Virus record (IMG/VR): IMGVR_UViG_2541047125_000007
Length of the DNA: 4,828 bases
Reading direction: 5' to 3' (one strand)
Source of the DNA: a virus
Lineage: Duplodnaviria > Heunggongvirae > Uroviricota > Caudoviricetes
In this document: positions 1,353-4,828 of the stretch, piece after piece
Layout of the letters: each line of letters opens with the position of its first letter
How positions within the stretch are numbered: position 1 is the stretch's first letter
Position numbers and translations under genes: made by a program
Notes under the pieces: model-generated
Seen by the model: the letters and a program-made list of their open reading frames with translations, nothing else
What the model was told of the DNA's origin: nothing
The model's database searches: none

Positions 1353-2069
1353 ATGGAAACCGTATCTGACGCACTGAAAGCACTGAAAAAAGCCTCTTCA
1401 CATGTGGTGGCAGCTCGCCTTGGAATCAGTCGTGAAGAGGCTGTCAACGAACTGTGGAAACTGAAACGCCGTGGAGAAGCGGATAACAAGGGGGCGATAT
1501 GGTGGCTGACTCAGGCTGGTGAAAGTGAACCGGTGTCACCGGTACCGAAAGTGACGGCGCAAATGCTGACAGAGGCGATTGAACAACATGGCCCACAAAC
1601 GGCGGATGAACTGGCATTGATGTTCGGAATTACCTCCCGCCGGGCGAATTCATCGCTGGCAATGGCAATCAGCAAAGGGTGTCTGATTCGCGTGAATCAG
1701 GATGGTAAATTTCGTTACTGCATACCGGGCGTTGATTTACCGGCAGAGCCGAAAGCAGCATCCGTAGCTGAAACGGAGGGTAAAGCCCTTCCTCAGCCAG
1801 CTGGTGTTGCGTTACCAGTCCAGGAAACGGCTGCACAGGAAGAAATTAAAACAGAAGCGGTGGAGGACATTGTGAAGTTGCAGCAATCGTTCACTGAAGC
1901 GAAAGCAGATGACCTGATTCTACCATCGCTGCATGTGGCTAACCGCGAGCTGCGCCGGGCGAAAAGTAATGTTCAGAAGTGGGAGCGAGTCTGTGCTGCG
2001 CTACGGGAACTGAACAAACACAGGGATATTCTCCGGGATATTACCGCCACCAGAGAGCAGCAGCGGTGA
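1353..2069 (+). CDS. Hypothetical protein with two winged-helix-like segments and a C-terminal coiled-coil-like region
   Basis: ATG at 1353 with SD GGAGGAA at 1340-1346 (the ORF track's 1335 start is a TTG in the same frame). Stop is TGA at 2067-2069. The segments [38 protein letters not shown] and [43 protein letters not shown] look like tandem wHTH units; the charged, heptad-like C-terminus suggests oligomerisation. It may belong to a DUF-type phage family, but I cannot confirm this from memory. Confidence 0.7.
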
Positions 2070-2383
2070 GTGGCTGGAAGAAGTGGCGCTGGGCTGAAAT
2101 CCTGATACTCCGGCAGTGTGCGGGAACGATGAGAGTCGAAAGCATCGGTTATCTGATTGGCCGTAGTGAGTCAGCCGTCAGGACGAAAGCGCGGGAACTG
2201 GGTATCAGCATGATGTTACGGGGTGATTATCACCAGTCAGCCAAATGTTCACAGCGTGATATTGAGCTGGCGTGGCAACTGCATCAGCGTGGTGTACCCC
2301 GACGGGAAATTGCCGAAAAGTTTGGGATGAAGTTGGGCGCAGTGAATAACTACGTTTATTTCGACAGGAGGGTTCAGGAGTGA
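2066..2383 (+). CDS. Small helix-turn-helix DNA-binding protein
   Basis: GTG at 2066 overlaps the upstream stop as GTGA (translational coupling); alternative start is ATG 2111. Stop is TGA at 2381-2383. [35 protein letters not shown] is a classic HTH of the resolvase or sigma region-4 type, and the N-terminal half ([10 protein letters not shown]...[24 protein letters not shown]) resembles a second DNA-binding motif. The upstream part of the track ORF (from 1979) lies inside the previous gene. Confidence 0.6.
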
Positions 2384-2682
2384 GGGTGAGGGTTTATATC
2401 GCCGGTCCGATGACGGGATATGAAAATTTTAACCGCGAGGCATTTCACAAAACGGAAGAGGTGCTGAAACGGGAAGGGCATACCGTTTTAAACCCGGCAG
2501 TACTTCCGGACGGGCTGACTCAGCCACACTACATGGATATTTGCATGGCAATGCTCCGTTGCGTGGATGCGGTTTACATGCTGAAAGGCTGGCAGCAGTC
2601 GGCAGGTGCAGGGGCTGAGCTGGCACTGGAGGAGAAACCGGGCCATGCGGTGATTTTTCAGGAGGTGGGCAGTGAATATTGA
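2380..2682 (+). CDS. DUF4406-like protein (nucleoside 2-deoxyribosyltransferase-like fold)
   Basis: GTG at 2380 overlaps the upstream stop (GTGA) with AGGAGG at 2366-2371; alternative GTG at 2386 has AGGAG 5 nt upstream. Stop is TGA at 2680-2682. The motifs VYIAGPMTG near the N-terminus and GW..SAGAGAE.A.A...G..V near the C-terminus fit this superfamily as I recall it. Confidence 0.7.
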   Translation: MRVRVYIAGPMTGYENFNREAFHKTEEVLKREGHTVLNPAVLPDGLTQPHYMDICMAMLRCVDAVYMLKGWQQSAGAGAELALEEKPGHAVIFQEVGSEY

Positions 2683-2989
2683 CCCGGCGATAACGATTGA
2701 TATGGCCCTGAACGCCGGCCTGGCACTTCTTGGTTATTTCTACATTATGTTCTGCAGCGGACGATGGCTGTCACTGTTGTTCATGAAAAAATGGAATAAA
2801 CGCCGTAAGCAGGAGCAACGCCAGAAGGCAATGGATGCATTTTTCGAAGCCTTCGGAATTGACGGCATGGAACCAGGGGATCCAGCTCGCGCAATCAGCA
2901 GAGGGGGTGTAGTAATCCTTGTATATCGGAGTGAAGAGAAAAATGACGATCACAAAACAACGTGTAGAAGAAATCATATCCCGCATTGA
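2672..2989 (+). CDS. Small membrane protein with one predicted TM helix and a basic juxtamembrane segment
   Basis: GTG at 2672 has AGGAGG 6 nt upstream and overlaps the previous gene by 11 nt; alternative start is ATG 2702. Stop is TGA at 2987-2989. The hydrophobic stretch ALNAGLALLGYFYIMFCSGRWLSLLFM is followed by KKWNKRRKQEQRQK. Confidence 0.55.
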   Translation: MNIDPAITIDMALNAGLALLGYFYIMFCSGRWLSLLFMKKWNKRRKQEQRQKAMDAFFEAFGIDGMEPGDPARAISRGGVVILVYRSEEKNDDHKTTCRRNHIPH

Positions 2990-3260
2990 AATGTATGGAC
3001 ATGGTGCAGGGTATATCGCAGACGAGGTTAATGATCTGGCTATACTGGCGCTGAATTTATCAAATATCGCGAACCTGAAGCGATACGAGCTTGATATGGG
3101 AGGTTGCGACTCGTGCGGTCAGGATTGTGGCGCTGATATGACTGAAGATCCTGATGGTGATTATGTCCTGTTTGATGACGTGGTTAAGTTGTTTGAATTT
3201 GATACAACCACTCAAAAGTTAGAAATCCCGGCAAAGGAGGCAGCCAGTGGGCAAGATTGA
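2943..3260 (+). CDS. Small strongly acidic protein with a Cys cluster (CDSCGQDCG)
   Basis: ATG at 2943 is preceded by GGAGTGAAGAG; the ORF track's 2919 start is a TTG in the same frame. Stop is TGA at 3258-3260. By manual count there are about 20 or more Asp/Glu against fewer than 10 Lys/Arg in about 105 aa. The start overlaps the 3' end of the membrane-protein gene by 47 nt, so the start is uncertain (alternative ATG 2991). Confidence 0.55.
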   Translation: MTITKQRVEEIISRIEMYGHGAGYIADEVNDLAILALNLSNIANLKRYELDMGGCDSCGQDCGADMTEDPDGDYVLFDDVVKLFEFDTTTQKLEIPAKEAASGQD

Positions 3261-3684
3261 CTATCAGGCACTGCGTGAGGCAGCACAAAACTATCAATCG
3301 ACGCTGGCGTGGTATCAGGCTACCCCGGACAGCCCAAATGCTGAACGGGATTGTGATGCGGCTCTTGCTGCGTTTAAGCGTCACATCCGTCATCGGGAAG
3401 CGGATATTATCGCTGATTTGCTGGATGGACTGGAAGAAGCAAAATCACAACTCAACGAGCAGCGTGAGTATTACGAAGGCGTTATCTCTGATGGGAGCAA
3501 GCGTATTGCTGAACTGGAAGCGCGGGAAGTTCAATTACCGACTCGCTACGACCTTCGATATGGACACCCGATAAATGCAGATGAGCGACATGTCATGATA
3601 CCTAAAGAAAATGGCAGTTGGCTTTACCTGATTGACCTAGAACACGCATTACGCGTCGCTGGCATTCGCATCAAAGGAGAGTGA
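3247..3684 (+). CDS. Hypothetical protein with an Ea22-like N-terminal motif and a coiled-coil-like middle region
   Basis: GTG at 3247 with SD AAGGAGG at 3232-3238; stop is TGA at 3682-3684. The N-terminus IDYQALREAAQNY resembles the conserved N-terminus I recall for ead/Ea22-like prophage proteins (low-confidence family call). The central EADIIADLLDGLEEAKSQLNEQREYYEG...AELEAREVQ is heptad-like. Confidence 0.6.
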   Translation: MGKIDYQALREAAQNYQSTLAWYQATPDSPNAERDCDAALAAFKRHIRHREADIIADLLDGLEEAKSQLNEQREYYEGVISDGSKRIAELEAREVQLPTRYDLRYGHPINADERHVMIPKENGSWLYLIDLEHALRVAGIRIKGE

Positions 3685-3685
3685 G

Positions 3686-3877
3686 ATGAACGGACAAATA
3701 TCAATTGTTCGACCAGGAGCATGTGACGATCGCGAAATACGAATGATTATTCGTCTGGCGATGGGGAAAACAATAACTGCTCTCATTACTCCAGAAAATC
3801 TCGCATTAGCATTAACAGGAAAGTCAGACATGCCAGTAGAGCTAAAGCTGCGAAATGTTGAGATTAAGGTGAAATAG
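3686..3877 (+). CDS. Small hypothetical protein (63 aa)
   Basis: ATG at 3686 is 2 nt after the upstream stop, with SD AAAGGAGAG at 3672-3680. Stop is TAG at 3875-3877. No recognisable motif. Confidence 0.5.
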   Translation: MNGQISIVRPGACDDREIRMIIRLAMGKTITALITPENLALALTGKSDMPVELKLRNVEIKVK

Positions 3878-3879
3878 CT

Positions 3880-4437
3880 ATGACCACTATTACCAAAGAT
3901 CGACTGCTGACAATCCAGCATTGGCGCGAAACATACGGACCGGGTAGCAACGTTGTGCTTCCAGCAGAAGAAGCGGAAGAGCTGGCACGGATTGCGCTGG
4001 CATCACTGGCAGCAGTATCGGATGAACGAGCAGCCTATGAATTATTTATGGAGAAGCGTTTCGGAGAATCTGTAGATCGCCGCAGAGCAAAAAATGGCGA
4101 TAGAGAATACATGGCATGGGATATGGCGCTTGGCTGGATTATCTGGTGTCACCGCGCCGCCATGCTTCAGGCTGGAAACTTTCGGGAAAATAAGGGTTCG
4201 TCAACCAATAATTTTCGGATAATCTCGGAAACGTCAACCAACTCTCCGGCAATCCCTGATGAGGTGTTGTCCGCAATCCTGAAGGTCGCCAGGCTTCGTG
4301 CAGATTTCGATGCTTCTGAAGTGGACAGGCGAGGTATCGGTAGTTGTCTGGATGAGGCCGAGCAAGAACTTATCGTTACCATTAACGAATACGCCAGTCA
4401 GATCGCAGTAGAAGCGACACAGGGGGAGAACCAATGA
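3880..4437 (+). CDS. Hypothetical phage protein (185 aa)
   Basis: ATG at 3880 is 2 nt after the upstream stop, with a weak SD (AAGGTGA). Stop is TGA at 4435-4437. It is in the same orientation and tightly packed with its neighbours. I do not recognise the family with confidence. Confidence 0.65.
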   Translation: MTTITKDRLLTIQHWRETYGPGSNVVLPAEEAEELARIALASLAAVSDERAAYELFMEKRFGESVDRRRAKNGDREYMAWDMALGWIIWCHRAAMLQAGNFRENKGSSTNNFRIISETSTNSPAIPDEVLSAILKVARLRADFDASEVDRRGIGSCLDEAEQELIVTINEYASQIAVEATQGENQ

Positions 4438-4511
4438 GCCGGCCAGATGCATTTGCAGGCGTTGCTATAGCTATTGCTTTTCTAGTATATGTTATTTGTC
4501 GGTGGGGGTAA
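4434..4511 (+). CDS. Putative 25-aa hydrophobic micro-peptide (MSRPDAFAGVAIAIAFLVYVICRWG)
   Basis: ATG at 4434 overlaps the upstream stop as ATGA and has a strong SD (AGGGGGAG at 4421-4428). Stop is TAA at 4509-4511. It has a single TM-like hydrophobic core and falls below the ORF-track length cutoff. Confidence 0.35.
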   Translation: MSRPDAFAGVAIAIAFLVYVICRWG

Positions 4512-4546
4512 AAACGTTCGCCGGGATTCACACCAAGGGAGGGAAT

Positions 4547-4651
4547 ATGTCGGATGATATTTCACTGGTAATGGAAGGCGCTCTGGCTGTTATTGCTGTT
4601 GTGGGTGTTTACTGCCTGGTTGTGTTTTTGATGGAGCGCCTGGGGAACTGA
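4547..4651 (+). CDS. Putative 34-aa hydrophobic micro-peptide (MSDDISLVMEGALAVIAVVGVYCLVVFLMERLGN)
   Basis: ATG at 4547 has a strong SD (AAGGGAGGG at 4535-4543, 3-4 nt spacing). Stop is TGA at 4649-4651. It has an acidic N-terminus and a TM-like core, and falls below the ORF-track length cutoff. Confidence 0.4.
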   Translation: MSDDISLVMEGALAVIAVVGVYCLVVFLMERLGN

Positions 4652-4661
4652 ATTCATTCCG

Positions 4662-4677
4662 TATGGGAATTCCCATA
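4662..4677. promoter_or_regulatory. 16-bp perfect palindrome TATGGGAATTCCCATA (possible operator or protein-binding site)
   Basis: The perfect dyad sits 11 nt after the last small ORF. No U-tract follows, so it is unlikely to be an intrinsic terminator. Confidence 0.35.
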
Positions 4678-4828
4678 TCGGGCAAAACGGTTTGCTGTAA
4701 AGCGAGAGTTAAGTAGAATTGCTGCGGGTGCTTGAGGCTGTCTGCCTCGGGCATGCCACCGTAAGGTAGACAGAGAAAAGCCCCAGTTAACATTACGCGT
4801 CCTGCAAGACGCCTAACATTAATCTGAG

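Follow-up and report, generated by a model that had tools for sequence, protein, structure and literature searches.

What does a lambdoid prophage carry directly after its replication genes, and is this interval a fixed set of functions, a store of genes directed against host immunity, or a stretch whose content is exchanged between phages? We take up this question for a 4,828-nt stretch of DNA from a member of the Caudoviricetes (IMG/VR record IMGVR_UViG_2541047125_000007), referred to below as the window, in which ten small genes on the + strand (g1 to g10, positions 1353 to 4651) run from a lambda-P-like helicase loader to a hok/sok toxin-antitoxin locus. A sequence-only reading of this DNA had proposed that these ten genes replace the canonical nin region of phage lambda and form a candidate accessory or anti-defense cargo block. 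From a comparison of related loci we find that the block is best described as a mosaic accessory region with a conserved frame, a reading to which we assign a probability of roughly 0.85.

The window matches a prophage of E. coli O157:H7 at 98.2-98.3% identity across 96% of its length, and at least 80% of the window is carried by 277 of 5,426 complete E. coli genomes. In O157:H7 strain SS52 the matching prophage adjoins potC. Its left part is ordered integrase, excisionase, RacR-type repressor, a YdaS/YdaT stretch of a helix-turn-helix (HTH) protein and a YdaT-family protein, DnaT-like initiator and lambda-P-like loader; to the right of the block follow hokD, DUF968, RusA, lysis genes and head genes. 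The locus is familiar ground: it is already annotated in hundreds of genomes, a swappable middle is ordinary for lambdoid phages and would be expected by specialists, and, the micro-peptides apart, Pfam or PHROGs already list all of its families (DUF1627, DUF4406, DUF4752, Ead_Ea22, PHROGs 3126 and 1222).

Variation between the helicase loader and hok/sok

We compared the window, gene by gene, with 80 IMG/VR loci, each of which codes for a g1 relative at 86-100% identity. Since these loci were chosen by at least 86% identity to g1, the set is E. coli/Shigella-centered and redundant, and the counts that follow are not natural frequencies. The interval from g1 to hok spans 1,256 to 5,754 nt in the 49 loci that have both anchors, and these loci together with the window display 21 different gene orders among 50. 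Presence is just as uneven: g2 and the g8 family are each found in 45 of the 49 loci, g3 in 31 and an Ea22-like gene in 24, while the numbers are lower for g10 (16), g7 (11), g4 (9) and g5 (9). Related loci carry alternative cargo, including DUF4014, DUF7167, DUF977 and ORF6N proteins and several orphans. Complete E. coli genomes, a sample that is itself redundant and E. coli-centered and whose counts again are not natural frequencies, hold at least 80% of g1-g2 in 576 cases, of g3 in 1,114, of g4-g5 in 404, of g6-g7 in 282 and of g8 in 338. On the basis of the locus counts, with which the genome counts agree, we treat g1-g2 and g8 as frame genes and g3 to g7 as variable cargo. A comparison of synteny across lambdoid prophages had been suggested together with the idea of accessory cargo; made here, it reveals an interval that varies between conserved anchors and not one universally fixed block. 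The term cargo thus suits the middle genes g3 to g7, with their 21 orders, their presence in 9 to 31 of the 49 loci and their occurrence in other contexts, and has to be given up for the frame genes g1, g2 and g8.

The exchange is visible within O157:H7 itself. At 2.6 Mb in strain TR01 lies a second prophage whose frame is the same all the way from the DnaT-like gene up to and including Q, and which has four different small genes between the DUF1627 gene and g8. Up to position 4252 the window matches the potC prophage at 98.5%, and to the right, from within g8, it matches this second TR01 prophage at 99%. Because the match switches inside g8 (breakpoint at about 4253-4409), the window is a recombinant of two O157 prophages. 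The consequence for g8 is that its DUF551 domain is replaced by an acidic helical module. More generally, g5, g8 and Ea22-type proteins have a common N-terminal 'ITKE...ARIALASL' leader and swap their C-terminal modules, which matches the published mosaicism of Ea22, whose variants differ in their C-terminal domains (PMC10834534).

The same genes also turn up well outside this operon. In a Stx1a-converting phage, exo-orf60a-orf63-orf61 is followed by homologs of g4 (91%), g7 (97%) and g8 (83%) and by an Ea22 variant other than that of the window; there the homologs of g4, g7 and g8 lie on the PL-transcribed strand, in the exo-xis region. A homolog of g5 with 85% amino-acid identity sits beside an eae-like gene in a small-gene cluster of Buchananvirus Sa179lw, a non-lambdoid siphovirus (our locus L088, 2501-2848), a closeness which suggests that phages of different genera have recently exchanged 'ea' genes. 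Judged by such sequence matches, one gene pool appears to supply the PR block, the exo-xis region downstream of PL in Stx1 phages, and unrelated phages as well.

Two further comparisons place this variation among known systems. In the intact Rac phage Rac-SA53 the replication genes are likewise followed by YdaW, by small genes including DUF4406 and Ead/Eae-type members and then by mok/hok; the fillers there are YdaW, LygF (with a Ren-like C-terminus), DUF4406, Eae, rac21 and rac22, with mok/hok further on, so that lygF, Eae, rac21 and rac22 stand where the block has g2 and g4 to g8. The Rac prophage of K-12 differs in having a deletion directly after a truncated ydaW. Phage accessory regions have been described as variable small genes between conserved flanks that are rich in counter-defense genes (Silas et al., bioRxiv 10.1101/2023.04.06.535777), and the block resembles them in its conserved flanks, its highly variable small genes and their exchange across phage groups; that study differs in being a survey of cultured phage genomes from which prophages were excluded.

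Position and gene packing in the early operon

The lambda nin region is the obvious system against which to measure the block. Both lie in the PR operon directly after the helicase loader, and both are runs of small overlapping genes (with overlaps of 4 to 34 nt in lambda). They differ in content, since BLASTP and phmmer searches against ren and ninB-ninI as encoded in J02459 give no E-value better than 1, in agreement with the impression of the sequence-only reading; they differ too in that hok/sok splits the region here and RusA and DUF968 lie beyond the block. The nin region of lambda is dispensable, as is known from the classical nin5 deletion. The claim that the block replaces the canonical nin region is thus sound as to position and too wide as to extent: hokD, DUF968, RusA and Q are still found downstream, so that the block can be only the proximal part. 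(Of the two O157 prophages that we compared, only the one in TR01 has an annotated intact antiterminator Q, which lies between RusA and the lysis genes.) We consider it likely that the block belongs to a Rac-like/lambdoid prophage and forms, within its early rightward operon, the proximal portion of a nin-equivalent region.

All ten open reading frames were re-read directly from the sequence and are present. It had been stated that every junction downstream of P is an overlap or a gap of at most 2 nt, and we find this for eight of them: 4-nt overlaps at g1/g2 and g2/g3 (both GTGA) and at g8/g9 (ATGA), overlaps of 11 nt at g3/g4, 47 nt at g4/g5 and 14 nt at g5/g6, and gaps of 1 nt at g6/g7 and 2 nt at g7/g8. 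The statement fails for P and g1, which are separated by 33 nt, and for g9 and g10, separated by 35 nt when g10 starts at ATG 4547. A strong Shine-Dalgarno sequence, AAGGGAGG, precedes this start, which RefSeq also uses and at which the conservation of the peptide sets in. The alternative start at TTG 4496, which would give an overlap with g9, was set aside: it has no Shine-Dalgarno sequence, the extension is poorly conserved, and both RefSeq and conservation favor ATG 4547. In the SS52 prophage, 98% identical to the window, nine of the ten genes have RefSeq annotations whose starts agree with ours, four of them GTG; for every start other than that of g2 a Shine-Dalgarno sequence lies within the preceding gene.

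The packing is real and, at the same time, not distinctive, for the nin-region junctions of lambda (P-ren, then ninB to Q) overlap in the same manner (-4, -4, -4, -34, -4, -11, -4, -23, -4) and the O- and P-like genes upstream of the block overlap by 8 nt as well. Translational coupling of g1 to g10 is a reasonable inference from this layout. A consensus scan detects no + strand promoter-like sites in the window (the number of sites is not above that of shuffled sequence), and the corresponding scan for terminator-like sites gives no excess over chance expectation. At the extreme end of P (1292-1317) there is a GC-rich hairpin, GCGCCGGAAGGCGGC, followed by TGGTTTTGTTT (fold z = -1.9), which could be a weak tR2-like terminator preceding the block. 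The middle genes are also set apart in composition, with a GC content of 0.41-0.47 in g4, g5 and g7 against 0.56 in O and P.

Frame genes and cargo genes

The mix of products announced by the sequence-only reading is borne out: g1 and g2 have weak HTH matches, g3 has an enzyme fold, g4 a hydrophobic segment, g5 is acidic (isoelectric point, pI, of 4.1), and the micro-peptides g9 and g10 are hydrophobic on the Kyte-Doolittle scale. The first of the frame genes, g1 (1353-2069, 238 residues), is a YdaW/DUF1627 protein (Pfam E 1.6e-81, 272 bits against a cutoff of 28) with winged-helix-like repeats in its N-terminal part and a charged C-terminal region. Its identity to the YdaW of K-12 Rac is 58% over the first 151 residues (E 2e-53), and to that of Rac-SA53 about 64%. 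In 61 of 64 loci g1 comes directly after the helicase loader, which is P-like in 29 and DnaC-like in 32, and so its place is kept whatever the replication module. We note in addition a short open reading frame on the exo-xis side of a Stx1a phage (L003, 6038-6439) that matches only the N-terminal 50 and the C-terminal 45 residues of g1, from which we take it that shortened YdaW modules occur in the PL region too. An analogy of g1 to lambda Ren was not adopted; the basis for it would be a faint PHROG match to 'Ren-like exclusion protein' (E 2.7e-4), the sole match of the block in the PHROG host-takeover category, and BLAST gives no match of g1 to lambda Ren. Directly after g1, in 45 of the 49 loci, comes g2 (2066-2383, 105 residues), a basic HTH protein that matches PHROG 323 'transcriptional regulator' (E 1.8e-24) and, weakly, Pfam Sigma70_r4_2 and other HTH families. 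Its start is the GTG within the GTGA overlap, which has no Shine-Dalgarno sequence of its own.

On the right, g8 (3880-4437, 185 residues) is a modular protein in which an N-terminal leader of the Ea type is joined to an invariant core (residues 45-125) and to the acidic helical module, with no DUF551. It has more than 7,000 relatives, most of them with DUF551, and the SS52 ortholog also has this domain. An AlphaFold2 model built from 22 close homologs is all-helical and unreliable, with a predicted local distance difference test (pLDDT) score of 51.7. A 'W..C.RAAMLQ' linker is also common to g5, g8 and their relatives, and there are database proteins in which a single chain combines the g5 core, this linker and DUF551.

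The two micro-genes follow. Besides its ATGA overlap with g8, g9 (4434-4511, 25 residues, hydrophobic) has its own GGGGGAG Shine-Dalgarno sequence, and across an in-frame 6-nt indel it keeps its reading frame as well as its start and stop codons, the changes being skewed to the third codon position. The family, of 25-27 residues with the pattern MxWPEAF..VYxICRWG (MxWPEAF..VGIAMAVALVVYSICRWG), recurs upstream of hok/sok in many prophages, for example in our loci L083, L048 and L018; it is absent from the RefSeq annotation of the SS52 prophage and present in some GenBank records. The second, g10 (4547-4651, 34 residues), corresponds to a coding sequence of the RefSeq WP_001278450 type; 6 of its 7 substitutions fall at the third codon position, and its Kyte-Doolittle value is 2.72. 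Between g10 and the hok locus lies a perfect 16-nt palindrome, TATGGGAATTCCCATA (4662-4677), with no T-tract after it. The right anchor is a type I toxin-antitoxin locus, hok/sok, of which the window, before it ends, takes in only the 5' part (4726-4828, + strand); it is recognized by a match to the Rfam sok family RF01794 that scores 61.3 bits (gathering score 59) with E 2.6e-12. The hokD coding sequence is next downstream in the SS52 and TR01 prophages; of 45 related loci whose sequence extends 4 kb or more downstream, 34 contain hok/sok.

Among the cargo genes, g3 (2380-2682, 100 residues) is a DUF4406 protein (Pfam E 2e-33), 87% identical to rac19 of Rac-SA53. Its AlphaFold2 model (30 homologs in the alignment) has a pLDDT of 88, and the top Foldseek matches in the PDB are nucleoside 2-deoxyribosyltransferases (NDTs), human DNPH1 and MilB, with probability 1.0 and a template-modeling score of about 0.7. 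On this model g3 is predicted to be a minimal NDT/DNPH1-like fold, common to these solved enzymes and differing in size, at 100 residues against 125-165. Y6, D53 and E80 are invariant across the 30 homologs and stand at what we take to be the positions of the catalytic Tyr, Asp and Glu of the NDT superfamily; an S-x-G-x-x-x-E motif likewise resembles the motif of NDTs and DNPH1. When the g3 alignment was compared by hhalign with an approximate human DNPH1 sequence, only the N-terminal Tyr motif aligned, and not significantly. Sequence searches of the PDB with g1, g3, g5, g6, g8 and a g3 profile returned nothing meaningful, with no significant match of g3 or its profile to any chain; as no residue-level alignment is significant, the catalytic equivalence stays an inference.

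The remaining middle genes differ from one another in character. DUF4752 covers residues 7-90 of g4 (2672-2989, 105 residues; Pfam E 7.5e-39), which has a single N-terminal hydrophobic segment (residues 11-29, where the Kyte-Doolittle value peaks at 1.54); past the Pfam domain g4 continues in a non-conserved tail, and it is this tail that produces the 47-nt overlap with g5. The acidic g5 (2943-3260, 105 residues) has no Pfam match and belongs to PHROG 3126 (E 2.5e-66), a small family of 107 representatives at 50% clustering; its nearly invariant CDSCGQDCGADM-E-D-DG core is preceded by an Ea-type N-terminal leader. The coiled-coil protein g6 (3247-3684, 145 residues) falls into Ead_Ea22 (Pfam E 2.2e-13, 51.4 bits against a cutoff of 27) and is 68% identical over 47 residues to the coiled coil of lambda Ea22 (residues 72-118, E 1.6e-15). 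Lambda Ea22 is encoded in the PL operon; g6 lies in the PR operon and not between exo and xis. The last of the group, g7 (3686-3877, 63 residues), is basic, matches PHROG 1222 of unknown function (E 1e-40) and changes mostly at the third codon position.

Defense, development and replication as possible roles

A conserved frame around exchangeable genes leaves the question of what the genes do. The working picture that we favor is that, upon infection or induction, transcription from the early right promoter would run through the replication genes and on into the block, whose genes would lack promoters of their own, and that translation would start at the overlapping or abutting junctions, mostly from Shine-Dalgarno sequences inside the preceding gene. 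The resulting burst of small proteins would tune early phage development and host physiology, and the set would turn over by homologous recombination between co-resident prophages, at the frame genes and at the shared N-terminal leader modules. Within this picture g6 and its neighbors may act like exo-xis proteins and bias the choice between lysis and lysogeny, g3 may be an active N-glycosidase or transferase on a nucleotide, and g1 may bind nucleic acid or a host toxin and might blunt retron-type abortive infection. We see an even chance that at least one gene of the block shifts the lysis-lysogeny balance.

The part of the sequence-only reading that concerned anti-defense was followed up with several searches. 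A general Pfam scan, as distinct from a dedicated anti-defense library, finds no recognized anti-restriction or anti-defense family among the matches of the ten proteins, and NCBIfam gives no usable matches for them. With PADLOC defense models at E <= 0.1 nine of the ten proteins, g3 included, have no match, and g10 has one chance-level match to Cmr5 (E 0.027); these models presumably cover retron effectors. A literature search for DUF4406 or NDT-like proteins of phages acting against defense produced no relevant report. For g1 there is a published lead: overexpressed K-12 ydaW relieved the toxicity of RcaT, the toxin of retron-Sen2, in a screen of prophage genes (bioRxiv 10.1101/2020.06.22.160242). 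RcaT itself is predicted to carry an NDT-like domain (PMC8632793). This is the fold superfamily of g3, encoded two genes downstream of g1; there is no link between RcaT and g3 at the level of sequence, and the sharing of a fold could be a coincidence. An anti-defense role is a live possibility for one or a few of the genes and is not an established role of the block, and the chance that at least one of them is a true counter-defense factor seems to us somewhat under even. One may go further and read the loader-to-hok interval of Rac-like prophages as a recombination hot spot for counter-defense effectors, in which YdaW-type proteins would neutralize retron toxins with an NDT-like domain, stand-alone DUF4406 proteins would serve as decoy subunits or competing enzymes against such toxins or against nucleotide-based immune signals, and g5, g8 and the Ea22-type proteins would form a polymorphic family whose common leader presents interchangeable C-terminal inhibitor domains; taken jointly, this is a long shot.

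Four narrower explanations compete for the function of the block. The genes may be developmental modulators, an exo-xis-like module moved to the PR operon that biases lysogenization and induction by way of host proteins. The membership of g6 in Ead/Ea22 and its match to the Ea22 coiled coil speak for this, as do the exo-xis genes of the Stx1a phage to which g4, g7 and g8 are 83-97% identical and the reported effects of the exo-xis region and ea22 on lysogenization and induction (PMC7093339, PMC3824215 and PMC10834534). Yet the likeness of g6 to Ea22 is confined to the coiled coil while the C-terminal domain, thought to bear specificity, differs (PMC10834534), the published effects are modest and come largely from overexpression, the block lies in the PR operon and not between exo and xis, and BLASTP and phmmer searches against lambda find no homologs of orf60a, orf61, orf63 or ea8.5 in it; we entertain this explanation tentatively, well short of even odds. 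Against a dedicated anti-defense island, in which most of the ten proteins would inhibit host immunity early in infection, stand the reports that ascribe modulation of the lysis-lysogeny choice to the exo-xis region and to Ea22, the characterized relative. Such an island would fit the early-operon position and the high turnover between conserved flanks that mark counter-defense-rich accessory regions, the action of a YdaW homolog on a retron toxin, the acidity of g5 and the fold that g3 has in common with the domain predicted in RcaT. It sits badly with the lack of any recognized anti-defense Pfam family among the matches and with the frame status of g1, g2 and g8, which are not variable cargo, and we think it rather unlikely.

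That g1, with its DNA-binding type of fold like that of g2, adjoins the helicase loader whatever the loader type (61 of 64 loci) suggests instead replication or recombination helpers comparable to ren and the Nin proteins, YdaW and the HTH protein acting at the origin or on the loader and DUF4406 cleaning the nucleotide pool; the resemblance of g3 to deoxynucleoside monophosphate (dNMP) N-hydrolases such as DNPH1 and the presence of RusA and DUF968 further downstream would be in keeping with it. Helpers of this kind are hard to reconcile with the absence of g3 to g7 from many similar prophages, one of them in the same genome, with the lack of homology to Nin proteins and with the occurrence of the same genes in the PL operon elsewhere, and we regard the explanation as improbable. 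The adjoining hok/sok locus, the hydrophobic segment in one of the proteins and the hydrophobicity of both micro-peptides could finally indicate genes of lysogenic conversion or superinfection exclusion, which the prophage would express to the advantage of its host and which would act together with hok/sok. Here the layout leads one to expect an operon silenced by the prophage repressor, no + strand promoter-like site is seen in the window, and PADLOC offers nothing beyond the chance-level match of g10 to Cmr5, which makes this account highly doubtful.

Several points also weigh against the picture that we prefer, a mosaic accessory region whose products are made early and tune phage development. 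The functions of all block genes are predictions; the YdaW result comes from an overexpression screen and concerns a truncated K-12 allele; the locus set has the E. coli/Shigella-centered and redundant composition described above, and its counts do not give frequencies in nature. What equates the g3 residues with those of NDT and DNPH1 is motif and fold, no sequence alignment being significant; it is from gene layout that the block is read as co-transcribed and translationally coupled; and the weak hairpin and U-rich run that end P could restrict read-through into the block.

If it is true that the middle genes counter immunity or steer the lysis-lysogeny choice, the induction and spread of O157:H7 prophages would be affected, including those of Stx phages with these genes. 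The mosaic reading also delimits an interval that can be mined across prophages, anchored by the helicase loader and YdaW on one side and by g8 and hok/sok on the other. Candidates worth testing are g1 (YdaW), g3 (NDT-like) and g5 (acidic, with a conserved Cys/Asp core), and two conserved hydrophobic micro-proteins are gained, one of which, g9, is missing from the SS52 annotation noted above.

To the sides of the block the window holds a few further features. An Rfam search at permissive E-values finds sok as the only RNA family in the window. A lead to the Pas small RNAs, for which DUF1627 is a neighbor marker, was dropped, as PasA and PasC adjoin the holin/lysozyme operon, outside the window. 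At the left end the DnaT-like and P-like replication genes are confirmed by Pfam and PHROGs. P itself (858-1319, + strand) matches Pfam Phage_lambda_P (E 7.8e-16) and the PHROG 'P-like helicase loader' and is named 'replication protein P' in RefSeq; its 8-nt overlap is with the DnaT-like initiator gene, which ends at 865. Inside the initiator gene, in the region 237-306, five GTCACG(A/C) repeats begin at 237, 247, 257, 268 and 278, with a spacing of about 10-11 nt, and are followed by ACAGATACAGATACAGATAAAGA; as with the origin in lambda O, these repeats are probably the iterons of the phage origin.

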